Source of the DNA: a candidate division WOR-3 bacterium
GTDB lineage: Bacteria > Hydrothermota > Tepidihabitantia > Tepidihabitantales > Tepidihabitantaceae
Length of the DNA: 64,000 nucleotides
NCBI GenBank assembly: GCA_965648905.1
Contig: CBFGIT010000001.1
Span: forward strand, 64,001-128,000
Direction: 5' to 3'
Shown here: piece by piece, positions 36,287 through 53,772 of the stretch
Numbering within the stretch: position 1 is the first letter of the stretch
Layout: the number at the start of each line of letters is the position of its first letter
The notes under the pieces: generated by a model
Database searches by the model: none
What the model saw: the letters and a program-made list of their open reading frames with translations, nothing else
What the model was told of the DNA's origin: nothing
Position numbers and translations under genes: made by a program

Positions 36287-36347
36287 TATAGACTAACCCG
36301 GACCGAAGCCAAGTTTGGCCCGGGCGGATCTCTCGGCCGCTACTCAG

Positions 36348-37085: not shown

Positions 37086-37094
37086 CTGCCTGCT

Positions 37095-37904
37095 CTAGCG
37101 GACGATGCGGCCAATGCGACTCAGCCGCACGGCCCACGGCGACAGGACGATGCGGGCAATGTTCGGTGCGGCCGACGACGAGAAGTAGAGGACGAGCGGC
37201 TTGCCCTTGAGGTGCCTCAGTTCGAGCGGGCCCCAGAACCGCGCATCTTCAGAGTTATCGCGATTGTCGCCCATCACGAAGATACAGCCTTCCGGCACAA
37301 CCACCGGGCCGAACCGGTCGCGGATATAGGGCGACAGTTCAGTCTGGTAGAACCGCCGGTCCTGCCACAGTCGGGCGAAGTCGGCCGGCATCGGGTCGAA
37401 CCCGGGCAAGGTGCGGTAGTCCTTATGCACGACGAACGGCTCAGATTGGAGCCGGCCGTTGATATGAAGCTGTTTGTCACGGTACTCGACCGTGTCGCCG
37501 GCCACGGCCACACAGCGCTTGATGAAGTTACGCGGCACGTACCAGTTGAAGAAACGGGTCTGCCGGTCCCAGAACAGGGGCAGAAGCTGCAGCCCGGGTG
37601 GAAAGAGCCGGACAAAACGCTCAGGCGGACCGGGCAGGTCGCCATCCACCGGGAACCGGAATACGACGATGTCACCGCGCTTCGGGCTGGACACAGGGAC
37701 CACGGTCCGGTCGGAGAAAGGCAGTTTCACGCCGTAGACGAACTTGTTGACGAGCATGAAATCGCCGATGAGGATCGTGTCCTCCATCGAGCCGGTCGGG
37801 ACCATGAACGCCTCAACGAGGAAAGAGCGGATGAGCAGGACCGCGAGGATGACCGGGGTCCATTCCCGGGCGAAGTTCCTGACCGACGAGCCAAGACGCT
37901 TCAT
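37095..37904 (-). CDS. lepB: Signal peptidase I
   Basis: VPTGSM, GDIVVF, FIKRCV, GDNRDNSEDARFWG. Start moved to ATG 37904 because TTG 37967 is the -35 box. Confidence 0.95.
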   Translation of the reverse strand: MKRLGSSVRNFAREWTPVILAVLLIRSFLVEAFMVPTGSMEDTILIGDFMLVNKFVYGVKLPFSDRTVVPVSSPKRGDIVVFRFPVDGDLPGPPERFVRLFPPGLQLLPLFWDRQTRFFNWYVPRNFIKRCVAVAGDTVEYRDKQLHINGRLQSEPFVVHKDYRTLPGFDPMPADFARLWQDRRFYQTELSPYIRDRFGPVVVPEGCIFVMGDNRDNSEDARFWGPLELRHLKGKPLVLYFSSSAAPNIARIVLSPWAVRLSRIGRIVR

Positions 37905-37938
37905 CAGGTAGAACCGTGGCAGCAGAGCATAACCTGTC

Positions 37939-37967
37939 AGTATAGAACCCAGCTCAGGTTGCGTCAA
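37939..37967 (-). promoter_or_regulatory. Sigma70-like promoter of lepB
   Basis: TTGACG-17 nt-TATACT. Confidence 0.65.
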
Positions 37968-38015
37968 GCCAGGCCACCAGCCCCTAGTTCCGACATTGGG
38001 ACCTCGATTCCGGTG

Positions 38016-38110
38016 AAAAAAGAAGCTGCTCCCCTCGTATCACCTGCGTCCAAACACTATATGACAGTTCACCCGTCAGGTGAAGAAAGGAGCAGCCAGA
38101 TGTTTAGACC
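38016..38110 (-). ncRNA. Candidate structured small RNA ending in hairpin plus U tract
   Basis: Long stem GCUGCUCCUUUC/GAGGGGAGCAGC and UCACCUG/CAGGUGA, then U6. Mismatches resolve as G-U only on the minus strand. Confidence 0.4.
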
Positions 38111-39197
38111 AATGCTAACCCAGAAACGGCTCGACTTCCAGCTTGCGCCAACCTCCGATACTATCACCAGTCGGGCCTGCCCGCGCCCAGGCAGGCGGGC
38201 AGGTCTGGCCCTGTTTTCAGGAAGCCGCGCTGGCACTGGGTGTCCGCAGGAGCCATCTTGGCAGTCGATTCTCACTCTGCCTTCGGCCTTTGTCCGCACT
38301 CCTGCCTCCTTTCGTCTTTTCTGCACCTCTGCCATTCTGCACTCTGCAATCTGTATTCTGCCTTCGTCCTACCATATGACCATCCCCTGGCTGGTAAGGG
38401 GGACGGTTCCCCTTTCGGAACCCCCTGCCCCGACCCCGGCCGAAACCCGTTGGGCAGCCCCAGGCGAAGCGGCTACGCCTTCCCCTGCCCCAGTCCTTTC
38501 GGCAACCCCTGCGCCTGTCGCCGCCCCGGGGGGTTCGGCGGCCCGCGCCCAGGCCCGATGCGTTCGCGGGTCCCCAACCCAGACCCAGACCGGTGCCGAC
38601 CCCCCTGCCCATCCGCCCGCGCCTCCCCTTGCCCAGACCACCGCAGTACCCCTCAGCCCGGCAGAGAAGACGACACCAGAGACCATCCGGACCATCCGGT
38701 TTGCCCGCAAGCGTCTGATAACGGCCGATGCCACAAATGTGTCCGCACTCCGAAACCCATCAGACGACGGTCTACTTAGTCAATCGGACTACCAACCGCG
38801 TGATCCCATCAAGTCCGAAGCTCAATATCGGGATTGGGGACCAGGGGGCCGGAATCTCTCCTGTCGTGGTCACGATTCCGGCAGCGGGCAGAGCAGTCCT
38901 ACCGCTTCTCTCACCACTGCCCACGCGAGCGCTGCCAGACCCGGTGTCGAGTCCGGCCCTGCGCACGACCGCCAACCTGCCCCCGGACCAGCCTTGGGGC
39001 CCGCAACCGCAACCGGCAGCCCTGATGCTGCCCGTCCTGCAACCGCACCCGCCGCCACAACCGGCAAGACATCTGACTCCAGCTCCGACGCGGCAGATGC
39101 CGGCCCAGCCGGCTTCTCGCCCGAACTCGGGTTCGGCAAGGGGAGCCACTCCCCCACTCGCTCCCAGAGCCACCCGAAAGACCCGGCGCGAAACTGA
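38100..39197 (+). CDS. Possible Pro/Ala/Thr-rich low-complexity hypothetical protein
   Basis: AAAGGAG RBS before ATG 38100 and an open frame to 39197. Includes a heptamer tract and CCCCTGCCC-like repeats, so it may be non-coding. Confidence 0.25.
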   Translation: MFRPMLTQKRLDFQLAPTSDTITSRACPRPGRRAGLALFSGSRAGTGCPQEPSWQSILTLPSAFVRTPASFRLFCTSAILHSAICILPSSYHMTIPWLVRGTVPLSEPPAPTPAETRWAAPGEAATPSPAPVLSATPAPVAAPGGSAARAQARCVRGSPTQTQTGADPPAHPPAPPLAQTTAVPLSPAEKTTPETIRTIRFARKRLITADATNVSALRNPSDDGLLSQSDYQPRDPIKSEAQYRDWGPGGRNLSCRGHDSGSGQSSPTASLTTAHASAARPGVESGPAHDRQPAPGPALGPATATGSPDAARPATAPAATTGKTSDSSSDAADAGPAGFSPELGFGKGSHSPTRSQSHPKDPARN

Positions 39198-39409
39198 GGA
39201 CTAGGCTCCAAGTCTCGCAAATGCAAGACTTAACCCGACTGGTCGTGCTTGTGCAATGCGCGGCTCTAGTCAACGCCGGCCTGACTGCATTCCGCCTGGG
39301 GTTTGTCTCTTGGCTTCTACTCTGCCTGTCGCTGTGTCGCCGCCGCTTTGGCCGTCAGTGCCCAGGGGCCAGTGCCTGACGCGCACGCACTGCACCATGC
39401 GGTGCAAGC

Positions 39410-39437
39410 TTGACTTGGTCGCATTGCGCTCTAGACT
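39410..39437 (+). promoter_or_regulatory. Putative cas operon promoter
   Basis: TTGACT-16 nt-TAGACT upstream of cas6. Palindrome TGCACC-atgc-GGTGCA at 39391-39406. Confidence 0.45.
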
Positions 39438-39510
39438 TCGACTCAACAAGCTGCCCCGGCAGAACGCATTGGTTCGGGCAATGCCGCCTGCCGGGGAGCG
39501 CGAGGGAAAG

Positions 39511-40425
39511 ATGAGAGTTGTACGTCTGAGTGTAGAACTGACCGCTCGTGAACCGGCCCGGCTGCCGCGTTACAAAGGCGCTGTTGTCCGCGGCGGTTTC
39601 GGACTTGCGTTTCGGCGGGTGAGCTGTCCGTTCCCGAAACGCGAGTGTGCTGACTGCCTGCTCGTGAAGCAGTGCGTCTGGTCGTACGTCTTCAACACGC
39701 CCCGACCGGACAACGCCACGGTCATGCGCAAATACGAAACCATTCCCCGGCCCTTTGTCATCGAGCCGCCAGAAGACCAGCGCACCCGGCTTGAGCTCCG
39801 CGACCAACTGCAGTTCGGACTTGTCCTGGTCGGCCGGGCAATCGAGCACATCCCCTACTTCATCTACGCCTTTGAGCAGATGGCCGAGCAGGGGCTGGGA
39901 ACAGGCCGGGGCCGGTTTGCCCTGACCGCGGTCCGACAGGATGGTACGCTCTTTTTCGACAGCAGGGCCAAGTGCTTTGTCACCCCGCTCAGGACGATGT
40001 CACTCGAGCTGGCACCCGGCGCTGACAACCCGGCCCGCGTCACCCTCTACTTCACAACTCCGCTCCGAATCATCCACGAAGGCAGAATGGTACGCCGACC
40101 CGAGTTCCATATCCTGATGCGGGCTCTGCTCCGGCGTCTCGGCCTGCTTGCCTACTTTCATGACCAGCCGGTCGAGCTTGACTACAAGACCCTTATCGGG
40201 CAAGCTGAGAGCGTACCGATGGTGGACTGCGCCCTTGCCCGAGTCGAATGGCGCCGCTTCTCCTCGCGTCAAGACCGCGTGGTCGAGATGGAAGGCATGG
40301 AAGGCAGGGCGACGTACGAAGGCAATGTTGGTCTGTTCCTGCCCTTCCTGAAAGCGGGCGAAATACTCCACGTCGGCAAGGGCACAACTTTCGGCATGGG
40401 CAAATACAAGATGGAGGTGAGATGA
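39511..40425 (+). CDS. cas6: CRISPR pre-crRNA endoribonuclease Cas6
   Basis: C-terminal Gly-rich loop HVGKGTTFGMG, N-terminal Cys cluster, PRPFVIEPP. Confidence 0.92.
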   Translation: MRVVRLSVELTAREPARLPRYKGAVVRGGFGLAFRRVSCPFPKRECADCLLVKQCVWSYVFNTPRPDNATVMRKYETIPRPFVIEPPEDQRTRLELRDQLQFGLVLVGRAIEHIPYFIYAFEQMAEQGLGTGRGRFALTAVRQDGTLFFDSRAKCFVTPLRTMSLELAPGADNPARVTLYFTTPLRIIHEGRMVRRPEFHILMRALLRRLGLLAYFHDQPVELDYKTLIGQAESVPMVDCALARVEWRRFSSRQDRVVEMEGMEGRATYEGNVGLFLPFLKAGEILHVGKGTTFGMGKYKMEVR

Positions 40426-42653
40426 ATAACAACGAAGACCGCGAGTTTCAAACCGTCGTCCTCGCTGCCCTGCTCCACGACATCGGCAAATTCGCTCAAC
40501 GGGCCGGAGTAGTCCCGGGCGGCTACGAACATTTCACCGAAGACGACCACGGTGCTCACGGCGCTCACGGCAAGTGGGGCGCATGGTTTGTCGAGCATTA
40601 CCTGCCTGACGAGTATAAAGCCGCTGGTGCCGCCGTGCTATTCCACCATCGACCCCAAGACCCTGTCACAGAGCTGGTCGCGCGTGCTGACCGTCTTTCT
40701 GCCGGTGAAAGAAACCTGGATTCGGGAGGAGACACATCTAAGTCCAGGCTCGTGCCGATTCTCGGCCGGGTCTATCGTCCGGCGTGGGCCGAAAACGGGT
40801 TCCGACTGAGGCCGCTGTCCATTAGGAAGGACGACGTCTTCCCATTGTGTCCGCAGTCGACTCCGGGTCTCACCGATGAGTACGCTTCTCTCTGGTCCCA
40901 GTTCGCACGCGACGTCGCTGTCCTGCGCAGCAGGAATCTGTCGTTCAGCGCACTGCTCATGACCATGCTTCATCTGCTCCACAAGTACACGTGGTGTATC
41001 CCTAGTGCCGTGTGGGGCTCAGAACCGGACATATCGCTTTATGACCATCTGAAGTCAACCGCAGCTATTGCCGCGGCCCTGTTCAGGTCAGGTCAGCCGG
41101 GCAGGTTCCGGCTCGTGGGCGGCGACATTTGCGGCATCCAGAACTTCATCTATCGACTCGCATCACCGGATGAAGCCCAGGCGGGCATGGCACAACGTCT
41201 GCGCGGCCGTTCGTTCTACGTAGCGCTGCTGGCCGATACAATAGCGGCGGCGGTGCTTGATGAGCTGGCACTGCCCGTGACCAACGCCCTATGGTGCGGC
41301 GGTGGCAACTTCACCATTCTGGCGCACGACATGGCCAACACGCGCGAACTCGAGGTCAGACTGGAAAACTGGCTCTTGGAGCGCTTCCAAGGAGAACTCG
41401 GACTGGCACTCGCCTTTGTGGACATCGACGAGACAGGGCTAGTCAACCTAGCCGACTCCTTGGGCCGACTTGGCCATGAGCTTCAGAAGGCGAAGCAGCA
41501 CAGGTTTGCGTCAGTGGAATGGCATCAGCCGTTCGCATTGACCGGTGAAGTGTGCCGCGTCTGCGGGAAAGACAGTGTCGAAGCTCTCTGTGCTGCATGC
41601 CGACAACACGAGCGGGTCGGCCAGGCAATCCCCCGCAGCAGATACTTGTACCGCGTAGCAGCGGCAGAGGAAGACAGTCAAGACCCGATCACGGAGTTCC
41701 GCGAGTTCGGCGCTGCTTGGGGCTTGGCCGGCGACCTGAGCGACGTGCCAAAGGGAGCCACAGAGGTCTACGCACTCAACACCACGGAGATGCCCCTTGC
41801 GTCAGTGCCACCACACGTCGGATGCGGCTTCAGGCTCCTCGCCCAGCGGGTTCCGGGTGACGGTCACGGCATCCTGACCTTTGACGAGATGGAACGCCGG
41901 AGTACCGGTGCGAAGTTCCTCGGCGCCTTGCGAATGGATGTGGACAATCTAGGCAAGACGTTTGGCTTCGGACTCGGCCAAAACAAGACGCTGTCCAGAA
42001 TTGCCGCACTAAGTCGGTCGATTGACCTTTTCTTCAGCGGCTACCTGAATGAGCTTGCTTCAGACTTCGAAACAGCCTACGTACTGTACGCCGGTGGAGA
42101 CGACGTCTTTGTTGTTGCTGCCTGGGACGAGGCTGTGGCCGTGGCGCGCCGGATCCGGGACGAACTGATGGCCTACTCCTGTGACAACGACCACGTGTGC
42201 ATCTCCGCCGGATTACACCTCTTCAAGCACGCATTCCCGATCGGCATCGCGGCCGGGCTGGCACGGGAAAAGCTGGAGAATCTGGCGAAGAAGAATGCGT
42301 CTGAAGGTCGCGAGAAAGATTCTCTCGCCGTCTTTGAATTCCCCTGCACCTGGCACAGAGCACGCGAAGCGCTCGCTCTTGCAGCAGAGGTGCTCAGACC
42401 GAGCATCGAGTCGAAACACTTGTCGCGACGCTTCTTGTACAACCTGCTAGACATCTATCGCACCCATTTCCGCAACGGAGTCGAGCACATTGGCTGGGTA
42501 CCCAGGTTTCGGTACCTGCTGAAGCGCAACGTCCCTGCAGAGGTCGACGGCCACCCCAATGAGCTGTATGCTACGCTTCTGGCGAAAATGCCGACGATGA
42601 TGAGACTCACGCCCCTCTGGGCAAATTGGGTTCTACTGGCAACAAGAGACTAA
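40422..42653 (+). CDS. cas10: Type III-A Cas10/Csm1
   Basis: HD domain LLHDIGKF, SLYDH, LRGRSF, Zn finger, MDVDNLG and YAGGDD palm motif. Confidence 0.96.
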   Translation: MNNNEDREFQTVVLAALLHDIGKFAQRAGVVPGGYEHFTEDDHGAHGAHGKWGAWFVEHYLPDEYKAAGAAVLFHHRPQDPVTELVARADRLSAGERNLDSGGDTSKSRLVPILGRVYRPAWAENGFRLRPLSIRKDDVFPLCPQSTPGLTDEYASLWSQFARDVAVLRSRNLSFSALLMTMLHLLHKYTWCIPSAVWGSEPDISLYDHLKSTAAIAAALFRSGQPGRFRLVGGDICGIQNFIYRLASPDEAQAGMAQRLRGRSFYVALLADTIAAAVLDELALPVTNALWCGGGNFTILAHDMANTRELEVRLENWLLERFQGELGLALAFVDIDETGLVNLADSLGRLGHELQKAKQHRFASVEWHQPFALTGEVCRVCGKDSVEALCAACRQHERVGQAIPRSRYLYRVAAAEEDSQDPITEFREFGAAWGLAGDLSDVPKGATEVYALNTTEMPLASVPPHVGCGFRLLAQRVPGDGHGILTFDEMERRSTGAKFLGALRMDVDNLGKTFGFGLGQNKTLSRIAALSRSIDLFFSGYLNELASDFETAYVLYAGGDDVFVVAAWDEAVAVARRIRDELMAYSCDNDHVCISAGLHLFKHAFPIGIAAGLAREKLENLAKKNASEGREKDSLAVFEFPCTWHRAREALALAAEVLRPSIESKHLSRRFLYNLLDIYRTHFRNGVEHIGWVPRFRYLLKRNVPAEVDGHPNELYATLLAKMPTMMRLTPLWANWVLLATRD

Positions 42654-42663
42654 AGGAGGCAAT

Positions 42664-43086
42664 ATGCCCACGACACTAGATGATTTCGTGACAAGCATCA
42701 GATCCAAGAGCTGCTTGGACGACGATATGATGGCGAAGGCCGAGAAGCTGGGCCAGGAGCTGGGAGGAGTCACCACCAGCAAGATGCGTCAGTACTTCGA
42801 CGACATCAAAGGCCTACGGCGCATGGTCGAGAGCAGGGCAAGTGCGCAGCAGGTCAAGGTGAAGCTGCGCCTCGTGCAGTCGCGGCTTGCCTATGACGTA
42901 GGCCGGGCCAGCAAGAAACAGCGGCCCGACATGGAGAAACTCAAGCGCTTCCTGGACGCAGGTATCTCTCGGGTCTTGAACAGCAACGACGCCTGCCAAG
43001 CGGTCAAGGACTTTGCCGTGTTCTTCGAATGCGTCTATGGGTACTTCTACTCCAACGCCAAACCGGAGAATGAGGAGGAAAGATGA
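42664..43086 (+). CDS. csm2: Type III-A small subunit Csm2
   Basis: TTSKMRQYFD, RLAY.VGR, FFE..YGY. Position after cas10. Confidence 0.88.
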   Translation: MPTTLDDFVTSIRSKSCLDDDMMAKAEKLGQELGGVTTSKMRQYFDDIKGLRRMVESRASAQQVKVKLRLVQSRLAYDVGRASKKQRPDMEKLKRFLDAGISRVLNSNDACQAVKDFAVFFECVYGYFYSNAKPENEEER

Positions 43087-43919
43087 GCTACAGGTTTCTA
43101 GGAAACATCATAGTGACCGGCACAATCAAGTGCGAAACCGCCTTGCACATTGGTGGCACAGTCGAAGGTTATGAAATCGGTGGGATGGATAACCCCGTTA
43201 TCCGTGAACCCGTAACCGGGTATCCCTACATACCAGGGTCTTCGCTCAAAGGGAAGATGCGCAGTCTGCTGGAATGGGCCAAAGGTCACGTACAGGTTGC
43301 CGAGGTCGACAAGAACGGCAAGAAAAGGGAAGTTGGCGAGGTCCACAGTTGCAGCAGAGCAGACTGCCCGGTCTGTCGTTCATTTGGCACACCGGCCGAA
43401 CAGACCAGAATCGTGGGGCCGACTCGGCTCTTGGTGCGGGACGCACACCCGACCGAAGACACCAAGAAGAACCTCGACCGTCTGCAACTCGAAAAGGGCC
43501 TTCCCAAGGCCGAATGGAAGTCGGAGAACTATATGAACCGCGTAACAGCACAGGCCACGCCGCGGACCATCGAGCGTGTTCCACAGGGCGCGGAGTTCGC
43601 GCTTGAGTTGGTCTACGGGCTGTACCGGGTAGAAGGCGAACAGGACATTGTCGACATTGGTCACCTGCAGTACGTGATTGAAGCGATGCGCCTGCTGGAA
43701 GACTCGGCACTGGGCGGGTATGGTTCGCGCGGCTCCGGCAAGATTTCGTTCGACCTTGCCGGGAGTGTCCTTCTCCGAACAACCGCCGACTATGAGACGG
43801 GCAAGCCCGGTATACCGCTTGACTTTGGCTCTCTCAAGGACGCAGACGTTGGCAAGCTTAAAGAGCAGGTGAAAAGGCACCTGGCCCAGGCAGATGAAGG
43901 CGCTGACGCTACATCTTAG
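43083..43919 (+). CDS. csm3: Type III-A RAMP Csm3
   Basis: LHIGG...IGGMDNPV, PYIPGSSLKGKMRS, LGGYGSRGSG. Confidence 0.95.
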   Translation: MSYRFLGNIIVTGTIKCETALHIGGTVEGYEIGGMDNPVIREPVTGYPYIPGSSLKGKMRSLLEWAKGHVQVAEVDKNGKKREVGEVHSCSRADCPVCRSFGTPAEQTRIVGPTRLLVRDAHPTEDTKKNLDRLQLEKGLPKAEWKSENYMNRVTAQATPRTIERVPQGAEFALELVYGLYRVEGEQDIVDIGHLQYVIEAMRLLEDSALGGYGSRGSGKISFDLAGSVLLRTTADYETGKPGIPLDFGSLKDADVGKLKEQVKRHLAQADEGADATS

Positions 43920-44901
43920 GTCCCCGTCGGGATTCAAGGATACCCTGCCTCGCTCTGATACGCTGTTCGGCGCGGTCTGTTGGGGCATCTGGCTACTATA
44001 CGGTGAAGTGAGGCTCAGGCAGTTCCTTGCGAGCTACGCGAACGAGAATCCTGCGCTAGTAGTGTCGTCGGCATTTCCTTACTTGGTAAGCGACGGACAG
44101 ACAACACATCTCTTCCCCAAACCAAAGTCCTGCCCCGCGACACCGCCAGCCGACGAGCGCCACTTCGGGCTTGCCAAGCGTTTCCGAAAGGTCAGATACC
44201 TGGACGACGCGTTGTTCCAAAAGGTCATCGAAAACGGCCTGACCAATCAGGACCTGTGGGATTCGCTGGTTCGGAATGAGACAACTCTTTCAGATGACCA
44301 ACAGGTTCTCTCGCACGTCCGCTCGAAAGGCCCCGGCTTGAAGCTTGAGGTGGTACCTGGCAATGCAATCGACCGGCTCGCCGGAGGTACGCTTGAAGGC
44401 ATGCTCTACCATTCGACCGAATGGTTCTTCGGCCCGGACACGGGGGCGTTCTTTCTTGCCCGCCTTGCTGAAGAATGGGAGAAGGAAGCGCTCGCGGTGT
44501 TCCGCTACTACGGGGACAAAGGGCTGGGCGGCGACAGCTCGGTCGGCAAGGGCAACTACAAACTCGACGTAAATGATGGCTTGCCGTATCGAGAGCCGTC
44601 CGACGGCAAGCGCTGGGTGACGTTGTCGCTGTACTATCCGAAACCGGCTGAGTGGGATTTCTGCCGGAACAATCCCGAACAATCCTGGTACTCGGTGATA
44701 CGGCGCAAGGGCAGAGTCGAGAGCGCCTTCAGCCCGACTACCAACTCCTGGAAGAAATCTGTGCTGATGCTTGAAGAAGGGTCGAGCTTCCCTGTCATTG
44801 ACGGAATCGGTGAGTACGGGATGCTGCCCGAGGTTGGGGCAAGACCGGATGGTGCCAAGGTGCTCCAAAATGGGCTTGCTTTCCCGGTCAAGATGAGGTG
44901 A
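43894..44901 (+). CDS. csm4: Type III-A RAMP Csm4
   Basis: SDTLFGA, SSAFP, GLGGDSSVGKG, EEGS.F. Confidence 0.92.
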   Translation: MKALTLHLRSPSGFKDTLPRSDTLFGAVCWGIWLLYGEVRLRQFLASYANENPALVVSSAFPYLVSDGQTTHLFPKPKSCPATPPADERHFGLAKRFRKVRYLDDALFQKVIENGLTNQDLWDSLVRNETTLSDDQQVLSHVRSKGPGLKLEVVPGNAIDRLAGGTLEGMLYHSTEWFFGPDTGAFFLARLAEEWEKEALAVFRYYGDKGLGGDSSVGKGNYKLDVNDGLPYREPSDGKRWVTLSLYYPKPAEWDFCRNNPEQSWYSVIRRKGRVESAFSPTTNSWKKSVLMLEEGSSFPVIDGIGEYGMLPEVGARPDGAKVLQNGLAFPVKMR

Positions 44902-44904
44902 ACC

Positions 44905-46080
44905 ATGAGCACAAGAGCAACAGACACCTATGAACTGAAGCTCACCCCACTCAGTCCGATCCACATCGGAACTGGCCGCGAGTACTTTCCCCAAGAGTAC
45001 TGTCTTGTCAGCGATCCAGACCGCGTCCTTATTGTAGACCTGAACTCGCTGATTCAGAAGTACCCGGACATTGCCGAACAGAGCTTTGCGGCTGGGAGAC
45101 GCGAACCCCTCTGGAAAACCCCGGCTGGCAACCTGGTCCGACAGGATAAGTCATTGGTTCTATACTCTGACAAGACCGACCGCCATACTGCCGGCGACAT
45201 CAAGACTTACGCCGAGCGCGGCAACGCCGCAACCATACGGGAGTTTACCAAGACGGCAAACTCGCAACCCTACATTCCTGGCAGTTCCGTCAAAGGCGCG
45301 GTTCGTACGGCAATCGCGTACGCCCTGCTCAGCAGTTCGGCTGAGATGTTCACCCGGTTCAAGCGTGCGGTTGTATTGACCGACAATGGCAGGGTTAGGC
45401 AAGGAGACAAGGAGGCAGTCGAGCACGCGGTGTTCGGCGACAGCGGAGACGCACACGAAGACATCATGCGCGTCTGGTCGTTCAGCGACTCATCCTCGCT
45501 GGCCTGTGACCGGACGCTCACTGTGGTGAAGGGCAAACGGCTGTCAAGCACTGGGCCGCTCGGGTATGAGAACTACTATGAGGTCCTGACCGAGACGAGT
45601 GGTCCGCTTCTGCTTCGATCGGCATTTGACCGTGCGTTGGCAGCGTCGGGCGCATGGACGAGCAAGACGTTGTCCGGTCTGCCCAAGACCATGAAAGATG
45701 TTTTCTCGTGCCTGAATCAGTTTGCTGACGACATCATCGCGTATGAACTTACCTATTTCGATAGGCATCCAGCCAAGCCGCAGGAAGTCGTGAACTTCTA
45801 TCAAACCCTCAAGCAGCGACGCGAGCACGGCGAGGTTCTGCTCTGTCTAGGCAAGGGCACTGGTTGGCATAGGAAGACCATAGGCCAGCTTCTGCGCAAG
45901 GACCGAAGCTCCATCTTCCGCGACGTCGTAAGCGCGTACAGCCTCGGCAAGGGCCAACGCCGCTTCACAGACTTTCCGACCTCCCGTGAGATGGCCGTTC
46001 GCGCCCGCATGCCGGGCGTGTTCGGTTGGGCCAGAATTGAACAGATGAGCAGCAAGCAACCAGATGGGAGAACCAGATGA
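44905..46080 (+). CDS. csm5: Type III-A RAMP Csm5
   Basis: TPLSPIHIGTG, YIPGSSVKGA.RTA, LGKGTG, FGW. Confidence 0.92.
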   Translation: MSTRATDTYELKLTPLSPIHIGTGREYFPQEYCLVSDPDRVLIVDLNSLIQKYPDIAEQSFAAGRREPLWKTPAGNLVRQDKSLVLYSDKTDRHTAGDIKTYAERGNAATIREFTKTANSQPYIPGSSVKGAVRTAIAYALLSSSAEMFTRFKRAVVLTDNGRVRQGDKEAVEHAVFGDSGDAHEDIMRVWSFSDSSSLACDRTLTVVKGKRLSSTGPLGYENYYEVLTETSGPLLLRSAFDRALAASGAWTSKTLSGLPKTMKDVFSCLNQFADDIIAYELTYFDRHPAKPQEVVNFYQTLKQRREHGEVLLCLGKGTGWHRKTIGQLLRKDRSSIFRDVVSAYSLGKGQRRFTDFPTSREMAVRARMPGVFGWARIEQMSSKQPDGRTR

Positions 46081-47306
46081 CAGCTTACATTGCCACTGTC
46101 GGCACGAGTGAGGCACGCAAGGGTGACATTGTTGCCGCCCTGTCTTTGTCCGCAGGCCAGATGACCCCCGGTTTCGTTCTGCTGTTGGCCACAGAGAAAT
46201 CTAGGCCCAACGCCGACGCCATCCTCCAGCAACTTGGCCGCGACGACAGCAACTCGCTTATCTACGTCCTCGAGGCCGAGCCTGAACACGCGCAGAACAT
46301 CTATAACGAAACGATTGACGTCATAACGCGGACGCTGAGCCGGCACCATATTCGGCCCGACGACGCCACCGCTGACATTACGTCAGGAACCAAACCGATG
46401 TCCGCAGCTCTGACCTTGGCCGCAGTTAAGCTCGGAATCGGCTATCTACGGTACGTGGCGGTCGAGAAGACTGCTAACAAGGAGGTCTGTACCGGCACCG
46501 AGGAGCTTCGGACGTTCCGGCCACTGGGCTTCCGTGCATCGCTCCTGCTCGACTCGGCGGTCAACCTGATGCGCCAGTACCGTTTCGATGCTGTCCGGCA
46601 ACTGCTTGAACCCATGCCCGAACACCTGTTGAGCGAATCTGAGAGGGCGACAAGGACCTGTCTCCTCTGTCTGGCGCGTGCATATTCCCACTGGGACATG
46701 TTCCGCCACACGCACTTTCAGGGCGAGTACGGCAAGGCGCGCTTTGGCGGCTTACCCGAGCTTCAGCAGTTCCGGCCTCAGCCCGACACGGTGCGAACGG
46801 TCTTGGAACTGGGCGTGGCTCTTGAGCAGGGCAAGCCGACCGACCTGGCTGTCGTCGACCTCATCAACAACGCCCGTCGCCGCATCGAAGAAGGCAAGTT
46901 CGACGACGCGACCGCCCGGCTCTACCGTGCCACCGAGATGCTTGCTCAGTGGCGACTGCACACCAAGCACGGCATCGACACTTCCGATGTTGACATCAAC
47001 AAGGTGCCACAGGCTTCGCGTCAATGGCTGGAGTACAGCCGCGACAACACCGACAAGAAAATCAGAGTCGCCTGCGAACGCGGCTACCGGCTTCTCTTCG
47101 ACCTGGGTGACCCGCTGGGCCCTGCTTTCAAAGACATCAAAGGCAATCTCCGGACTCGCAACGACTCCATCCTGGCCCACGGGCTCACGCCTGTCACCGA
47201 GGAAGTCTGCAACAGCCTGCGCAAAGCGGTCGAGAAGATGGCGAAGGAGGCCATCGCCGACTACGACTCGAAGTCCGCTCTGCTCCGGTTTCCCTGGAGC
47301 AGGTAG
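46077..47306 (+). CDS. CARF-domain effector, TIGR02710/Csm6-like, with HEPN-like motif
   Basis: TVGTS, DITSGTKPMS (CARF), ARLYRA.E, RNDSILAHG. Confidence 0.85.
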   Translation: MTAYIATVGTSEARKGDIVAALSLSAGQMTPGFVLLLATEKSRPNADAILQQLGRDDSNSLIYVLEAEPEHAQNIYNETIDVITRTLSRHHIRPDDATADITSGTKPMSAALTLAAVKLGIGYLRYVAVEKTANKEVCTGTEELRTFRPLGFRASLLLDSAVNLMRQYRFDAVRQLLEPMPEHLLSESERATRTCLLCLARAYSHWDMFRHTHFQGEYGKARFGGLPELQQFRPQPDTVRTVLELGVALEQGKPTDLAVVDLINNARRRIEEGKFDDATARLYRATEMLAQWRLHTKHGIDTSDVDINKVPQASRQWLEYSRDNTDKKIRVACERGYRLLFDLGDPLGPAFKDIKGNLRTRNDSILAHGLTPVTEEVCNSLRKAVEKMAKEAIADYDSKSALLRFPWSR

Positions 47307-47414
47307 CCACCGGCCGACCAGCCGGTGGCACAGGCGGTCCGCGCCTGCTGCTCTTTGACAATTTGGAGTGAAACCGACCCCAACACATCATCGACCAAAC
47401 CTGAGGCGGACACA

Positions 47415-48404
47415 ATGGCTACCCTCTATGTGACTGAACAAGGCGCCAAGCTCACCCGTGAATCACGCCGTCTCCTGGTCGTACGCGGCGACGAAACTCT
47501 GCTTGACGTCCCGACCATCAAAGTCGAACGCGTGCTCATCTTCGGCTACTGCCAGATTACCACCCAGGCGCTCGAACTCCTGCTCAACGAAGGCATTCCG
47601 ACCGCGTTCCTCTCCATGGAAGGCCGGCTCAAAGGCACACTCGAACCGACGAAATCGAAGAACATCCCGCTGCGCGTGGCCCAGTACGAAACCTGCCGCC
47701 AGCCCGACTTCTGCCTCACCATGGCCAAACGCATCGTCGCCGGCAAAGTCAAGAACCAGTCGCGGCTGGTACAGCGCTTTGCTCACAACCGGCCCGAGCT
47801 CGACTTCGCCCAGGTGCAGGCCGACCTTGCCCGCCTGCACAGCGAGGTTGACCACAAGACCGCGGCCGGCGGCCTGCTGGGAATTGAAGGACACGCGACC
47901 GCCGTCTACTTCGACGCCTTCCGCCAGATGTTCCAGCAGCTCTCCTTCGAACGCCGCACGCGCCGGCCGCCAACCGACCCGGTCAACTCGCTCCTGAGCC
48001 TCGGCTACACCATGCTCGCCAACGAATACCTCTCAGCCGTCGCCGCCGTCGGACTCGACCCGCACCTGGGCTACTTCCACTGCGTCAGCTACGGTCGCCC
48101 CTCGCTCGCGCTCGACCTCTGCGAAGAGCTCCGCCACCCGCTTGTCGACATGCTCACGCTCGACCTGGTCAACCGCGCCATCCTCAAAGAAGACGACTTC
48201 AACCAGGAGCAAGGCGGCTTCATGCTCAAACCCGAAGCGAGAAAGCGTTACTTTGCCAAGTACGAACGCCGCATGACCATCCGGTTCAAACACCCGCGCA
48301 CCGGCCAGACTACCAACGTTCGTTCGATAATCCGCGACCAGGCGCTGGCGATGGCGCACGCGATTCAAGAGAAGAAACCCTATGAACCATACTACATCGG
48401 ATAG
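47415..48404 (+). CDS. cas1: CRISPR-associated endonuclease Cas1
   Basis: TLYVTEQG, LLGIEG, DPVNSLLSLGY, GYFH, SLALDLCEELR. No RT fusion. Confidence 0.96.
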   Translation: MATLYVTEQGAKLTRESRRLLVVRGDETLLDVPTIKVERVLIFGYCQITTQALELLLNEGIPTAFLSMEGRLKGTLEPTKSKNIPLRVAQYETCRQPDFCLTMAKRIVAGKVKNQSRLVQRFAHNRPELDFAQVQADLARLHSEVDHKTAAGGLLGIEGHATAVYFDAFRQMFQQLSFERRTRRPPTDPVNSLLSLGYTMLANEYLSAVAAVGLDPHLGYFHCVSYGRPSLALDLCEELRHPLVDMLTLDLVNRAILKEDDFNQEQGGFMLKPEARKRYFAKYERRMTIRFKHPRTGQTTNVRSIIRDQALAMAHAIQEKKPYEPYYIG

Positions 48405-48413
48405 AGGTGGCAG

Positions 48414-48713
48414 ATGAACCAGACCAGCTCCGACCAGTGGCACGTTGTCGTCAGCTACGACATCAAGAGCGACCGCCGCCGCAACAAGGTATGCAAGGCC
48501 ATGAAAGACTACGGCGAACATATCCAGTACAGCGTCTTCGAATGCCTGCTCAAGCCCAAGGACCTCGACCGGATGGCAAAGCGCGTCCAGTCGCTGATTG
48601 ACGAAGCCGAAGACAACGTTAGAATATACGTGCTTTGCGCTGCCTGCCGTGACCGGGCCAGGGTTATCGGCCAGGGCCAGGTCATAGAAGACCCTGACGT
48701 TCTGGTGGTTTAG
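48414..48713 (+). CDS. cas2: CRISPR-associated endoribonuclease Cas2
   Basis: VVSYDI, RR.KV, QYSVFEC. Confidence 0.96.
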   Translation: MNQTSSDQWHVVVSYDIKSDRRRNKVCKAMKDYGEHIQYSVFECLLKPKDLDRMAKRVQSLIDEAEDNVRIYVLCAACRDRARVIGQGQVIEDPDVLVV

Positions 48714-48805
48714 TTCTGGGTTGACGGCAAGAGGCGCAAGAACAGGGGTCTCAACCCAAACGGCCTACTTAAGCTACTGTTTAGCAATAGCTTACAAGGC
48801 CGAGG
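48714..48805 (+). promoter_or_regulatory. CRISPR leader
   Basis: Relatively AT-rich non-coding stretch between cas2 and the first repeat. Degenerate repeats lie at the far end of the array. Confidence 0.65.
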
Positions 48806-49693
48806 GTCAGAATCCTCGCCCTGATGAAAAAGGGATTACGACCTGTAGGCTTACACCCACAGCACGAACACTCAATTGTCGTCAGAATCCTCGCCCTGAT
48901 GAAAAAGGGATTACGACAAGCCGTCCGGTGACTCCCAGTTGTCGTCGTAGCAGGCACGTCAGAATCCTCGCCCTGATGAAAAAGGGATTACGACGCAGAC
49001 GCCAGACTCAAGCTCGACCCAGCTCTGCTGCGTCAGAATCCTCGCCCTGATGAAAAAGGGATTACGACGCTTCTCTGTCAGCGAGTACGAAGCGCGGCCT
49101 ATCGAGTACCGAGTCAGAATCCTCGCCCTGATGAAAAAGGGATTACGACCAAGGTCCAAAGAACCCCATGACGATCACGGAGCATCCAGATTCGGTCAGA
49201 ATCCTCGCCCTGATGAAAAAGGGATTACGACGAGGAGTTCGCAGCGCTTCTGAGAATCGGCGCGAAGTGGGTCAGAATCCTCGCCCTGATGAAAAAGGGA
49301 TTACGACGTGTCGGTGGTTCAAGCGTGTCGTTCTCATCCTGCGTTGAGTCAGAATCCTCGCCCTGATGAAAAAGGGATTACGACCTGACGTGGTGGGCGA
49401 AGATACGCTCGTTCTGGTTCTGCCTGTCAGAATCCTCGCCCTGATGAAAAAGGGATTACGACCCCACATAGGGACCCCAATACCCTGCGCATACATTTCT
49501 CTGGGTCAGAATCCTCGCCCTGATGAAAAAGGGATTACGACCTATCGGTGAGCCTTACTGCCACCTTCCCAACACCAGGTATGTCAGAATCCTCGCCCTG
49601 ATGAAAAAGGGATTACGACTTCAAGAGGGTGTCCACGAACTCCAGCAGGTAGTTGCGGTACGTCAGAATCCTCGCCCTGATGAAAAAGGGATT

Positions 49694-49821
49694 TACCGCG
49701 CCTGACGGCGCAAAGGCAGATTGCAGATTGCAGAATGCAGAAGTCAAAATGCCGGGCCGTCCGATGCTTTGACCTTTGCACTTTGCATTTTGCCTTTTGA
49801 CTTGCGCGCGCAGCGCGCCAG
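49694..49821. mobile_element. Hairpin (MITE/REP-like) element in CRISPR repeat 12, copy 1
   Basis: 128 bp between repeat positions 1-32 and 8-37. Imperfect palindrome of heptamer arms. Confidence 0.7.
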
Positions 49822-49924
49822 TCCTCGCCCTGATGAAAAAGGGATTACGACACCGCCTTTACGAGAGGCGGAAGACTAAGTGCGACGCTCACGTCAGAAT
49901 CCTCGCCCTGATGAAAAAGGGATT

Positions 49925-50353
49925 TACCGCGCCTGACGGCGCCAAGGCAGAGTGCAGATTGCAGAATGCAGAAGTCAAAATGCCGGACCGTCCGATGCTT
50001 TGACCTTTGCACTCTGCATTTTGCCTTTTGACTTGCGCGCGCAGCGCGGTGGAATCCTCGCCCTGATGAAAAAGGGATTTGCCGCACCTGACGGCGCCAA
50101 GGCAGAGTGCAGAATGCAGAAGTCAAAATGCCGGACCGTCCGATGCTTTGACCTTTGCACTCTGCATTTTGCCTTTTGACTTGCGCGCGCAGCGCGCCAG
50201 TCCTCGCCCTGATGAAAAAGGGATTTACCGCGCCTGACGGCGCAAGGGCAAAAGGCAGATTGCAGAATGCAGAAGGCAAAATGCCGGGCCGTCCGACACT
50301 TTGACCTTTGCACTCTGCATTTTGCCTTTTGACTTGCGCGCGCAGCGCGCCAG
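49925..50353. mobile_element. Three tandem hairpin elements in CRISPR repeat 13 (49925-50051, 50080-50200, 50226-50353), separated by repeat cores
   Basis: Near-identical to 49694-49821. Separated by partial repeats 50052-50079 and 50201-50225. Confidence 0.7.
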
Positions 50354-50870
50354 TCCTCGCCCTGATGAGAAAGGGATTACGACTTGACGGGCGGCGAGAG
50401 TTGAGTATGCTCTGCACGATGCCGAGTCAGAATCCTCGCCCTGATGAAAGAGGGATTACGACATGGCGCGTCGTGCCGGAACTGACGATTGGGCTACTAA
50501 CCGCTACCTACGTAGCGTAGCTAAAGAGGTGGTTGATGAACTCACTGCACAAAGCTTTGGAAGAGGTGAAAAATCGGGAGCAGACGCCCGAGGAAGCAGA
50601 GAAGGCGCTGGAAAGCCTGTTGTCAGAGGCGAAGAGCTTCCTCGAGAGAAATGGATTTCCATTGACCACAGAGAATTTGCAAGGCGCTTTGATAATCATC
50701 CGGGCTGGCAGAAGAATGAAGAGGGATTCAAGTTAGCGCACGATGCGCTATCGAACATCCCGGAGCTATCTACCCAATTGCAGCGGCTGGAGAACGGGGA
50801 ACTGCATCCCCGGCTGGCGCTACAGATAGTTGACGCCTACGACCAGGCGCGGTTTCGGTCAGAATCCTCG

Positions 50871-52511
50871 CTAAGGAGTCTGCTCCGACTCTGGCAATTC
50901 TGCTTCTCGCATCTCGGCGATTTCGAGTATCTCGACTGCGCGCAGAGCCGCCTGCTTCACGATGCGCGGCTGCTTGCTCAAAGGCCAGGGCCTTGCCATT
51001 CTACGCAACTGGGGCAGAGCGCGGGTCACCCGGAGCCCGGCCAGTCCGTCAATCGCCGCAGCACGGATTTCCGGCTCCGGGTCGTCAAGAGCGGCGAGAA
51101 GGAATTCGGCGCCAATCGGATTGCCAATCTCGCCAACCGCACGCAGGGCGCAGGCCCGCACCAGGTCGCTCTCATCCTTCAGCCGGTCGAGCAGCGGCAT
51201 GGTCGCACGAAAGTCGCGCAGTTTGCCCAGTGCCTCAGCCGCCATTGCTCTCACGACCGGGTCACGGTCGGAAAGCGCGTTGACGAGCGCCGGTGCGGCC
51301 CGGCTTTCACCAATCTCGCCGAGCGCCTGGGCTGAGACGATTCTCACCCAGACCGTCGCATCAGAAAGACCCTGAATCAGCCGTTCGCAGGCTCCCTTGT
51401 GCCGCAGCCGGCCAAGCACATCGGTTGCGCGCACGCGCACCTCGACCAGATTATGGCCGAGCAACTTGAACGTCGGGTCAAGGGCCAGAGCGGCCTGGGC
51501 CTCAAGACCGTTTGCTGCGGCCGCGGCAACTTTCGGGTCCTCGTCTGCCAGCGCAGCAGCCAACAGCTCGGCCGAACGAGAGTTGTGAATCCGGCCCAGG
51601 GCTGATACCGCTGCCAGCCGTACCCGGTCATCAGCATCGGTCAGCACGCCGGCCAGTGCCTCAATGCAGCTCGGGTCGCCGATACCGCCGAGCACCTCGG
51701 CCGCCGATGCCCGCACGGTCGGATTCTCGTTCACCAGCAGCTCCGCGACCGGAATCAGGGCGGTCTTTCCCTGGTCGAGCAGCGCGGTCATCGCATTCAG
51801 CCGGTCGGAAAGGTCCTCAGATGCAAGCGCACGAATCAGCGGGTCCACGGCCTGAACGCTGACGCTGCGCAAAGCCTCAAGTGCGGCGCGGCGGACTTCC
51901 GGGTCCGGGTCTTCGGATGATATGCGGGCGAGCAGCTCCACTGCCTTGCGGTGGCGGAGCCGACCCAGGGCAGTGGCTGCGGCGCAGCGCATTTCCGGGT
52001 TGTCATCGGCCATCTCATCCATCAGCGCATCAACGGTCGAAGGGTCCCGGATTTCACCCAGCGCGCGCGCGGCCGCGATGCGCACCGAATCGACCAGGTC
52101 GCGCAGCAGGTCAAGGAGCGGAGGGATAGCAGCACGGCCGCCAATTCGGCCCAGGGCCACAGCAATTGCCGCACGGGTCTCAGGGTCGCGGTCGGTCGCA
52201 TTACGGGCCAGCAGTCCGACCGCCGAATCAAGGCCCAGCCGGCCAATCAACTCCGGAACCAAAGTCCCAACCGGCCCCTGCCAGTTACTGACGCAGCGGC
52301 TTACCGGCTCGATTGCAGCCGTTCCCAGTGCGACCAGCGCATCGGCCGCACGGCGCCTGATGCTCTCATCCGGGTCAGAAAGCAGCAAAACCAGCGCACC
52401 CGCAGCCTCGCTGCCGCCGATGTTTGCCAACCGGTCCACTGCCTGACCACGAACAACCGGGTCCGTGCTGTGCAGGTCAGAAACGACCCCGCTCAGCGAG
52501 AGATGCTTCAC
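50871..52511 (-). CDS. HEAT/PBS-lyase repeat protein
   Basis: Many L.D.D..VR..AA.ALG repeats. Start moved to GTG 52511, overlapping the cutA stop (GTGA). Confidence 0.88.
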   Translation of the reverse strand: MKHLSLSGVVSDLHSTDPVVRGQAVDRLANIGGSEAAGALVLLLSDPDESIRRRAADALVALGTAAIEPVSRCVSNWQGPVGTLVPELIGRLGLDSAVGLLARNATDRDPETRAAIAVALGRIGGRAAIPPLLDLLRDLVDSVRIAAARALGEIRDPSTVDALMDEMADDNPEMRCAAATALGRLRHRKAVELLARISSEDPDPEVRRAALEALRSVSVQAVDPLIRALASEDLSDRLNAMTALLDQGKTALIPVAELLVNENPTVRASAAEVLGGIGDPSCIEALAGVLTDADDRVRLAAVSALGRIHNSRSAELLAAALADEDPKVAAAAANGLEAQAALALDPTFKLLGHNLVEVRVRATDVLGRLRHKGACERLIQGLSDATVWVRIVSAQALGEIGESRAAPALVNALSDRDPVVRAMAAEALGKLRDFRATMPLLDRLKDESDLVRACALRAVGEIGNPIGAEFLLAALDDPEPEIRAAAIDGLAGLRVTRALPQLRRMARPWPLSKQPRIVKQAALRAVEILEIAEMREAELPESEQTP

Positions 52512-52900
52512 CGTCGTGCTCCAGCACGCTTGTTCTCCGTCCCACCGGCACGCCCCTTCGTGCTCCTGCCCCGACGGGCGACCGGCCTGGTTTCCGCGGC
52601 CAGCCACTCAAGGTATGCCCGGCTGCCGGCTGCGACCGGCAAGGCGATGATTTCCGGCGTGTCATAGGGGTGCAGGGCCCCGAGTCTGCGCACGAGAGCA
52701 TTATAGCGCGAACCGGTGGTCTTGACAAGGCACAGCCATTCGCCCGTAGTCTCCTCCTTGTTCTGCCACCAGTACGTGCTCTCGACCGGGCCAAGGACCT
52801 GCACGCACGCAGCCAGCCGTGCCTTGACCAGCTCGCGGGCGATATGCCGGGCCACAGCGCGGGTCGGTGCAGTCGTCATAACCTGCAGATACTCTGGCAC
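52508..52900 (-). CDS. cutA: Divalent-cation tolerance protein CutA
   Basis: LVKARLAACVQV, S.YWW, HPYDTPEIIALPV, YLEWL. Start at GTG 52900. Confidence 0.92.
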   Translation of the reverse strand: MPEYLQVMTTAPTRAVARHIARELVKARLAACVQVLGPVESTYWWQNKEETTGEWLCLVKTTGSRYNALVRRLGALHPYDTPEIIALPVAAGSRAYLEWLAAETRPVARRGRSTKGRAGGTENKRAGARR

Positions 52901-53091
52901 TGATGACAGTTTCCCCTTTGGAACGGCTAAGTCAAGAATGAACCGGCCCGGTCTTTCTTGACACTGACAGCCAGGCAGTATTATCTGTTCGGGTCCTGAC
53001 GCCCCGCCTTTGTCCGGATGCGGCGGTGCGAGCGCTCTGGTACGCGGGCGGGACAGGACAAAGGCAGAGAAAGACCGAGAAAGGAGATACC

Positions 53092-53772
53092 ATGAGGCAT
53101 GCAACTATGCTGGTGCTGGTCGGTGTCATTGCTGTTGCCGGCATCACGCGGGCGCAGTCGGGTTTGGGGCTGAGCATCAAGCCGGGCTTCACCCTGAATG
53201 CAGCGCACATCGGCTACAAGGCCGACAATCTGTTCATTGGCGGCGGCCTGGAGTTCGCCAGCGTGTCGCTGTCGGGCAGCTTCGAGCATACCTACACCGA
53301 CACGTGGGGTCCACGTGACACGACGATTTCAGAGAAATACAGTACCAAGCAGGAAGCAAGCGTCTTCCTGCCCCAGGTCGCGTTCAAGGCGCTGTTCGGC
53401 GGTCCAGGTGAAGGGGAAGCTGACCGCGGCTATGCCCGGCCCTATCTCTGGGGCAGCCTCTTCTACTCAATCGCATCGGTTAGGTCATCCTTCACCTACG
53501 GGGACTCAACCAAACACGATACCATCGCTGAGAAGCTTCTGAACGACGTCCTGAGCGGCAATCTGGGCGGTACGGTTGCAGTGGGCGGGGAGTACTACAT
53601 CGCCAAGAGCCTCTCGCTCAGCGGCGAGTTCGGCTGCCGGTTCGTGTTCGGCGGCGTGAAACAGGAGTTCCGTAACGAGGAGTCTTACTATGTGAACGAC
53701 GTAACCAAACTCGACGGTAAGCTCGGGCTGGGTGTAACCTACACGACCCTTGGTCTGAACTTCTACTTCTAG
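53092..53772 (+). CDS. Outer membrane beta-barrel protein
   Basis: AAGGAG RBS, signal peptide, alternating beta strands, C-terminal NFYF. Confidence 0.75.
   Translation: MRHATMLVLVGVIAVAGITRAQSGLGLSIKPGFTLNAAHIGYKADNLFIGGGLEFASVSLSGSFEHTYTDTWGPRDTTISEKYSTKQEASVFLPQVAFKALFGGPGEGEADRGYARPYLWGSLFYSIASVRSSFTYGDSTKHDTIAEKLLNDVLSGNLGGTVAVGGEYYIAKSLSLSGEFGCRFVFGGVKQEFRNEESYYVNDVTKLDGKLGLGVTYTTLGLNFYF

Follow-up and report, generated by a model that had tools for sequence, protein, structure and literature searches.

A coding-like 395-bp insert at a spacer position in the trailer of a type III-A CRISPR array

Introduction

In the accessible part of their article, the authors of CRISPRDetect attributed overlong spacers in CRISPR arrays to degenerate repeats, and described insertions and deletions at the 3' ends of arrays (PMC4869251). 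Here we describe a 395-bp insert at a spacer position near the 3' end of a type III-A CRISPR array from a candidate division WOR-3 bacterium. The array lies in a 64,000-nucleotide stretch of DNA (contig CBFGIT010000001.1, positions 64,001 to 128,000, of assembly GCA_965648905.1), which was analysed as a whole and is called the window; all coordinates are window positions. The insert is a true oddity at a spacer position, and it was also found in a sister strain.

Two other kinds of element have been described beside CRISPR-cas loci. Shmakov et al. (2023) found solitary repeat-like elements near 10-14% of type III systems and, as far as the consulted sections of the article go, judged them to be degraded and non-functional, with no conserved position and no targets (PMC10120712). 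CreTA, according to the excerpt available to us, denotes CRISPR-regulated RNA toxin-antitoxin pairs of type I systems (PMC9458426).

Results

Position, borders and composition of the insert

The insert lies between the last full repeat of the array and a truncated repeat, which meets a convergent HEAT-repeat gene:

48806..50462, + strand: CRISPR array, repeat unit of 37 nt (GTCAGAATCCTCGCCCTGATGAAAAAGGGATTACGAC), with 18 listed copies of which 11 are perfect
50426..50462, + strand: last full repeat, one mismatch (A-to-G) to the 37-nt consensus
50463..50857, + strand: non-repeat insert at a spacer position, coding-like orphan sequence, 395 bp
50858..50871, + strand: truncated repeat GTCAGAATCCTCGC, repeat positions 1-14, exact
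50871..52607, - strand: convergent HEAT-repeat gene of 578 amino acids, whose stop codon shares the last base of the truncated repeat

The ten ordinary spacers of this array have lengths of 37-45 bp and GC contents of 0.50-0.65, and the length of the insert is outside the array's own range. Its borders are exact repeat ends: on the left stands a full repeat, and on the right stand bases 1-14 of one (at least 30 bases in the sister strain, see below). The 14-mer GTCAGAATCCTCGC was counted 15 times in the 3,011,016-base genome, 14 times within repeats of the array and once at 50858-50871. Since it is absent from the rest of the genome, the match of the 14-nt stub is not due to chance, and the coincidence which the first-pass annotation of this DNA had allowed for was ruled out. 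That annotation had described 395 bp and then an exact 14-bp repeat start after the last full repeat, and both its coordinates and its letters were verified. It had also placed the repeat start against the HEAT stop codon: base 50871 indeed belongs both to the stub and to the TAG stop of the HEAT open reading frame (ORF), stop codon included in the listed ORF.

The first-pass annotation had noted that the insert is more A-rich than flanking genes. The insert's GC content is 0.54 (A 0.27, T 0.19), as against 0.62 genome-wide and 0.66 in the HEAT gene, and its + strand is purine-rich. This GC content is under that of the host and inside the range of the ordinary spacers, which may lend weak support to a mobile-element source.

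The insert in a sister strain

As the first-pass annotation had proposed, we compared the array trailer with that of a related strain. Contigs of the sequencing run X1, with a depth of about 4.5, were placed on positions 47000-53000. X1, from a hot-spring metagenome, represents a related strain. Mismatches to the window number 8 in 425 and 7 in 515 positions for its cas1-cas2 pieces, and 70 in 1152 (93.9% identity) and 38 in 793 for its HEAT pieces. A 351-nt X1 contig spans 50595-50856 (262 nt, the 3' part of the insert) with 17 differences and no gaps, and its identity of 93.5% is close to that of the HEAT gene. The same contig next carries 31 letters matching 49112-49142, which are one base plus repeat positions 1-30, and its final 58 or so letters had no match in the 6 kb compared, HEAT gene included. 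In the sister strain, the insert precedes at least 30 nt of repeat and then non-HEAT sequence. Because at least 30 nt of repeat stand there, we read the 14-nt stub of the window as a repeat cut by a rearrangement.

Coding signals inside the insert

The + frame from 50463 is open through all 131 codons of the insert and continues to 51335. A second frame holds an ORF at 50533-50736, which codes for 67 amino acids from TTG or 66 from ATG 50536. The first-pass annotation had reported an open frame across the whole insert and a 67-amino-acid ORF behind a motif like a ribosome-binding site, and both were located as it had described. Two parts of the insert need to be distinguished:

50524..50736, + strand: candidate small gene, or 5' part of a broken gene; Shine-Dalgarno (SD) motif AAGAGGTGG at 50524-50532, ATG at 50536, 66 codons, TAG at 50734-50736
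50739..50857, + strand: last third of the insert, protein-like in the 50463 frame, with no stop before the repeat

We used 3000 dinucleotide-preserving shuffles of the insert as the null model. A fully open + frame was found in 0.5% of the shuffles, an SD motif and ATG with an ORF of at least 60 codons in 0.8%, and both in 0.07%. Because these features are so rare in shuffles, the insert is judged not to be random, and at the level of its sequence it resembles coding DNA rather than random or decayed array sequence. The motif AGAGGTGG followed by 3 nt and ATG has two copies genome-wide, one at the insert ORF and the other at cas2.

Frames were also compared by an amino-acid composition score, which has a mean of 0.19 in true frames and -0.19 in wrong frames. 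In the frame of ATG 50536, the score was protein-like (0.25-0.34) over about 50524-50660, where GC by codon position was 0.48/0.39/0.61; it turned negative from about 50700, and the stop follows at 50734. The GC content at third codon positions (GC3) of the 66-codon ORF was 0.61, compared with 0.78-0.79 in cas1 and cas2. In the 50463 frame, the score was protein-like (0.23-0.31) over 50658-50718, and GC by codon position in the last third was 0.74/0.33/0.72. As the 50463 frame runs into the repeat without a stop, this last third reads as a truncated coding fragment.

Single-sequence AlphaFold models gave a similar division. The 66-amino-acid product was modelled as three helices with a mean predicted local distance difference test (pLDDT) score of 79.9, and blocks within residues 21-50 reached 89-96. 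The 50463 frame over the bases of the same ORF (residues 32-66), which served as an internal control, is rich in Gly, Arg and Glu and scored below 50, and its residues 81-130 scored 71-85. From composition and models together, we infer that the coding signal switches from the 50536 frame to the 50463 frame near 50700. The long frame of the first-pass annotation is thus open but probably not one protein, as its middle is not protein-like in that frame and is so in the other. Two readings fit the insert: an intact small gene with a piece of another gene behind it, or the start of one gene with an old frameshift, cut at the repeat. Any frameshift would predate the split of the strains, because the sister strain has no indel across the region. 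No slippery heptamer for programmed frameshifting was seen by eye near 50700.

At the left border, the A-to-G change in the last full repeat makes GAGGG 8 nt before ATG 50463, which opens the long frame (50449-50465). The predicted Cas6 cut would fall between GAGGG and this ATG.

Searches for relatives, a donor or a known element

To the first-pass annotation, the insert looked like a captured foreign coding fragment. The spacer position and the coding-like sequence agree with this, but no donor was found: searches of 50463-50857 with blastn against phages and plasmids, and with tblastn against phages, gave no match, and metagenome sets gave none. There were 0 matches of the insert DNA to 40 relatives, and only chance-level rows (E 0.009-0.09) when both frames were compared at the protein level with 43 genomes of the family. 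A protein search with the 136-amino-acid frame gave 0 matches among candidates of near, longer and shorter lengths (27, 639 and 0 candidates). An exhaustive profile search with the 67-amino-acid ORF against 1.84 billion cluster representatives found no true relative; its two profile matches (2559 and 1004 amino acids) were tandem-repeat proteins summing many weak local matches and were discarded as artefacts. Scans for related loci gave 235 pattern matches in metagenome contigs, 5 and 32 in viral contigs and 555 in genome contigs, and 0 were confirmed in each. There was no match in Pfam, PHROGs, NCBIfam or PADLOC, no known anti-CRISPR or defence protein, no usable match in the ESM Atlas, and 0 matches at E <= 0.001 in fold searches of PDB and BFVD. 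At E <= 10, Pfam still gave no match for either frame of the insert.

Phages, plasmids, viral contigs and metagenome contigs yielded no protospacer, and the ordinary spacers were likewise unmatched in phage records. The searched collections may lack the viruses of the host's habitat. The 24-nt repeat core gave 0 matches in genome contigs and metagenome contigs, though the relative G009 holds the exact core. Since the ordinary spacers were also unmatched and the core scans missed this relative, the blank searches weigh little.

Several known kinds of element were compared with the insert. For an insertion sequence or a miniature inverted-repeat transposable element, blastn and tblastx found no second copy in the genome, and the ends of the insert carry no inverted or direct repeats apart from short words due to chance. 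A second copy of the leader was rejected: the insert scored 17 in local comparison with the real leader, where shuffles averaged 16.4, and matched it at 12 of the final 40 nt. By fold energy the insert was nothing out of the ordinary (z = -0.70), which speaks against a structured RNA. Rfam had no match on the insert; its only matches were to the CRISPR repeats, together with chance miRNA-like ones on the hairpin elements described below. A scan for promoters and terminators stayed at background level, with no terminator-like site on the + strand. For a self-target of the would-be guide (the first 45 nt), the longest matches in 36000-53500 were 9-10 nt and as numerous as by chance. A diverged gene of the 23S rRNA intervening-sequence protein (IVP, PF05635) was also rejected: a six-frame scan of the genome at E <= 10 gave 12 matches, none of them at the insert. 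Compared pairwise with an IVP protein, the insert gave 8 of 22 identical residues at E 0.02.

The HEAT gene and the array end

We examined the HEAT locus of nine relatives. In eight of them, ftsY is convergent directly after HEAT; in the ninth, that of the same-genus G001, a C25-like peptidase gene follows HEAT. The first-pass annotation had considered that the insert might be conserved chromosomal DNA beside the HEAT gene in relatives lacking the array. G001 argues against this: its HEAT locus has a different neighbour and lacks the array, Cas1 is unmatched at E <= 1e-60, and the insert has left no trace. In the window, ftsY lies at 29405-30265, 20 kb from HEAT and on the same strand. Its companions there are smc, der and a gene of the LytR family; between this group and HEAT stands the CRISPR-cas locus. 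The family-wide convergent pair of ftsY and HEAT is disrupted both in the window and in G001, and the HEAT end is a point of rearrangement.

The nucleotide alignment of HEAT with G001 reaches 50899 at 81% identity. The protein tails can be aligned up to the junction, and that of the window is two codons shorter (ending in EMREAELPESEQTP before the stop, compared with EMQESESPDTGQVPEP). Since the tails are alignable this far, the break lies at the last HEAT codons, and the junction itself supplies the stop. The rest of the repeat (positions 15-37, with up to 4 mismatches) was sought as a sign of an inversion and found nowhere else in the genome assembly; we therefore interpret the event as a deletion or as some more complex rearrangement. 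A simple inversion from ftsY to the stub was dropped as a model, as ftsY overlaps the next gene by 4 nt at the other end.

Hairpin elements and other trailer inserts

Four copies of an imperfect-hairpin element of about 125 bp, three of them in tandem, occupy spacer positions at 49694-50350. Each copy is attached to the upstream repeat after GGGATT, and the downstream repeat resumes at about position 8, which leaves a 25-nt repeat core duplicated around the element. Full or partial copies are also present on contigs C9 and C11, and a 30-nt arm motif is scattered over many contigs. On C9, far from the array (G000:C9:71200-71600), two hairpin elements flank a 26-nt CRISPR repeat core, GTCCTCGTCCTGATGAAAAAGGGATT, with one mismatch. 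It seems that the hairpin element either moved a piece of repeat to C9 or has this core as part of itself.

Related type III arrays in G011 (L045:1490-2100, G011:C20) and G004 (L033:90-260, G004:C263) end in a repeat that breaks off after GGGAT(T) and gives way to long hairpin arms. Those of G011 enclose a gene of 119 amino acids for a four-helix bundle like 23S rRNA IVP and bAvd (PF05635, E 5e-38). The 3' part of the repeat looks like a preferred entry site for hairpin elements. As these two arrays and four units of the array studied here carry non-spacer DNA at the trailer, the trailer tolerates foreign inserts.

The cas operon, leader and array

The host genome has 3,011,016 bases, 62% GC and 60 contigs, and the window is part of contig C1. 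Only one public run, labelled hot-springs metagenome, contains part of the stretch, and no RNA run was listed as containing any of it. The array is preceded by:

39256..48713, + strand: type III-A cas operon, from Pfam matches, with NCBIfam TIGR02710 for Csm6 and a weak cas6 match
48714..48805, + strand: leader, 92 bp from the cas2 stop to the first repeat

The operon is complete, in the order cas6, cas10 (HD and palm), csm2, csm3, csm4, csm5, csm6 (CARF-HEPN), cas1 and cas2. The listed cas6 and cas10 ORFs share 178 nt (40248-40425), and for this reason the true start of cas10 is probably further downstream than that of the listed ORF. Directly 5' of cas6, on the same strand, is an ORF of 870 amino acids (36585-39197) with no match in Pfam, NCBIfam or PADLOC, which may be an accessory gene of the type III locus.

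The final two repeats of the array carry point changes. Rfam matched CRISPR-DR32 to the repeats on the + strand at 33.7 bits, under the gathering score of 48. Because the cas genes and this match are on the + strand and the last two repeats are mutated, the leader is placed on the left and the trailer on the right.

Discussion

Origin of the insert

We give roughly even chances to the explanation that the insert is a gene-bearing fragment of foreign or lost DNA, which was fixed at a spacer position and is now a passenger, and, as part of it, that the insert predates the split from the sister strain. Trailer ends of CRISPR arrays collect damage. Non-array DNA, probably foreign or from a lost gene region, would have been fixed between two repeats in the old trailer part. 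It would have brought a 5' untranslated stretch, a strong ribosome-binding site, the 66-codon frame and then coding-like sequence in the other frame. Entry exactly at the repeat borders could have come about by aberrant integration of an oversized fragment or by insertion into an ordinary spacer; the exact borders resemble a unit made by the integrase, and the second route would look alike. Later, in the lineage of this genome, a rearrangement would have truncated the downstream repeat beyond base 14 and brought what was left up against the last HEAT codons.

In type III systems, Cas6 cuts 8 nt before each repeat end, Csm holds the 5' tag, and the 3' end is trimmed to about 37-45 nt. The precursor of the CRISPR RNA (pre-crRNA) would run from the leader through the insert, Cas6 would cut in the last full repeat, and Csm would bind the 8-nt tag AUUACGAC. 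Trimming from the 3' end would then yield a crRNA of normal size with only the first 30-40 nt of the insert, and the remaining 350 nt or so would be a passenger. The 14-nt stub has no repeat part of the kind that Cas6 needs, and since it would not be cut, the transcript may run on antisense into the HEAT gene. These steps follow general knowledge of type III systems; the anatomy in two strains is what was directly seen. Such trimming may make the giant spacer harmless, and this may be the reason for its survival.

Several points weigh against a relic of foreign or lost DNA. No listed X1 contig covers 50463-50594, which at a depth of about 4.5 is uninformative, and the left junction and the junction of the repeat with HEAT were each seen in one assembly. 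With no donor or relative found, the word foreign depends on composition, and the GC range of ordinary spacers is wide and native intergenic DNA is likewise GC-poor. The frame switch near 50700 depends on composition and single-sequence models, which often score any helical peptide high. A gene still in use would also be compatible with the strong SD motif, with an undisrupted 66-codon ORF and with 262 nt that lack indels despite 6.5% divergence. A literature search gave no report of oversized integration by Cas1-Cas2 in vivo, or of gene-sized or unusually long spacers.

Alternative explanations

A working small gene would use this ORF for a protein of 66 residues and three helices. The template for its translation would be the pre-crRNA, or the long 3' product that remains once Cas6 has cut the last full repeat, which would couple expression to transcription and processing of the array. 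The motif and spacing shared only with cas2, the rarity of such ORFs in shuffles (0.8%), the protein-like composition score and the helical model (mean pLDDT 79.9, core 89-96) speak for this, as do the absence of indels over 50595-50856 in the sister strain and its repeat of at least 30 nt after the insert. However, no relative was found among 1.84 billion cluster representatives or in Pfam, PHROGs, NCBIfam, PADLOC, the Atlas and the fold searches, the GC3 is far from that of cas1 and cas2, and high single-sequence pLDDT is common for any amphipathic helix, and we regard a working gene as unlikely. It is quite unlikely that a protein gene lives as a spacer in this type III-A array, with an mRNA defined by Cas6 cuts at the flanking repeats and a dosage tied to crRNA biogenesis. 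The sister strain keeps both the insert and the repeat after it. If this were true, the 66-residue protein could be a guard, a regulator or an addiction module of a kind not described for type III.

The 395 bp could also be native DNA between two adjacent arrays, possibly a second leader, if all but 14 nt of the second array has disappeared here. The two repeats preceding the insert carry point changes as terminal repeats do, the sister strain has a repeat after the insert, and leaders are usually GC-poor like the insert; against this stand the lack of likeness to the real leader (17, shuffle mean 16.4), open frames which would be unexpected in a leader, and the absence of a native counterpart in the DNA of 40 relatives or the proteins of 43 family genomes, which makes two arrays rather improbable. 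About five old repeat-spacer units with repeats decayed past recognition are barely credible. Such decay is the usual source of overlong spacers in the accessible part of the CRISPRDetect article (PMC4869251), and the 13-nt stretch 50716-50728 resembles repeat positions 19-32; yet the best repeat match inside the insert scored 18, within the shuffle distribution (mean 16.9, standard deviation 2.5, 95th percentile 22, maximum 27), and decayed units were rejected on this result. The flanking repeats are perfect or nearly so, the open frames argue otherwise, and 6.5% divergence from the sister strain is too little for internal repeats to vanish. A misjoined insert or HEAT junction in a metagenome-derived contig is very unlikely. 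The assembly comprises 60 contigs, arrays are difficult to assemble, and the left and stub-HEAT junctions come from a single assembly, but the independent run X1 has the same junction of insert and repeat, the HEAT reading frame ends cleanly, and an overlap of 14 nt would probably be too short to mislead a k-mer assembler.

If the insert is a relic of foreign or lost DNA, a type III array tolerates a tenfold oversized spacer, which the 3' trimming of type III crRNAs would account for, and programs that call arrays can hide such cases by splitting or truncating the arrays. If the small ORF is alive, it would be the first example of a protein gene with a transcript defined by CRISPR repeats in a type III system.

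Comparison with known systems

CreTA elements reportedly need the Cascade effector for repression, and are said to have a strong SD motif and start codon with tandem rare codons at once after it. Like CreTA, the insert is a small element with a strong SD motif and a start codon beside repeat-like sequence in a cas locus, and its ORF has a tandem AGA AGA. Unlike CreTA, the locus is of the Cas10/Csm type III-A and not Cascade, AGA AGA is at codons 59-60 of 66 and not right after the start, and no partial self-target of the guide above chance was found in 36000-53500.

Like the solitary elements of Shmakov et al., as far as the accessible text describes them, the stub is a solitary partial repeat near a type III array. 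Its partner, in contrast, is the array's own last repeat, the spacer between them is 395 bp compared with about 40, and the arrangement recurs in a sister strain.

Like the hairpin and IVP elements in arrays of its own family, the 395-bp insert is non-spacer DNA at the trailer. Those elements interrupt the repeat behind GGGAT(T), have further copies elsewhere in the genome and fold into long hairpins; none of this applies to the insert, which also has no PF05635 match.

Like the trailer damage described for CRISPRDetect, in the portion of that article available, the oddity is distal to the leader, the repeats are mutated or partly deleted, and a truncated repeat ends the array. Unlike those cases, the insert consists neither of decayed repeats nor of a mobile element that could be recognised; its borders are exact repeat ends and its sequence is coding-like. 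A trailer insert which has exact repeat borders, is gene-like and persists across strains is unusual.

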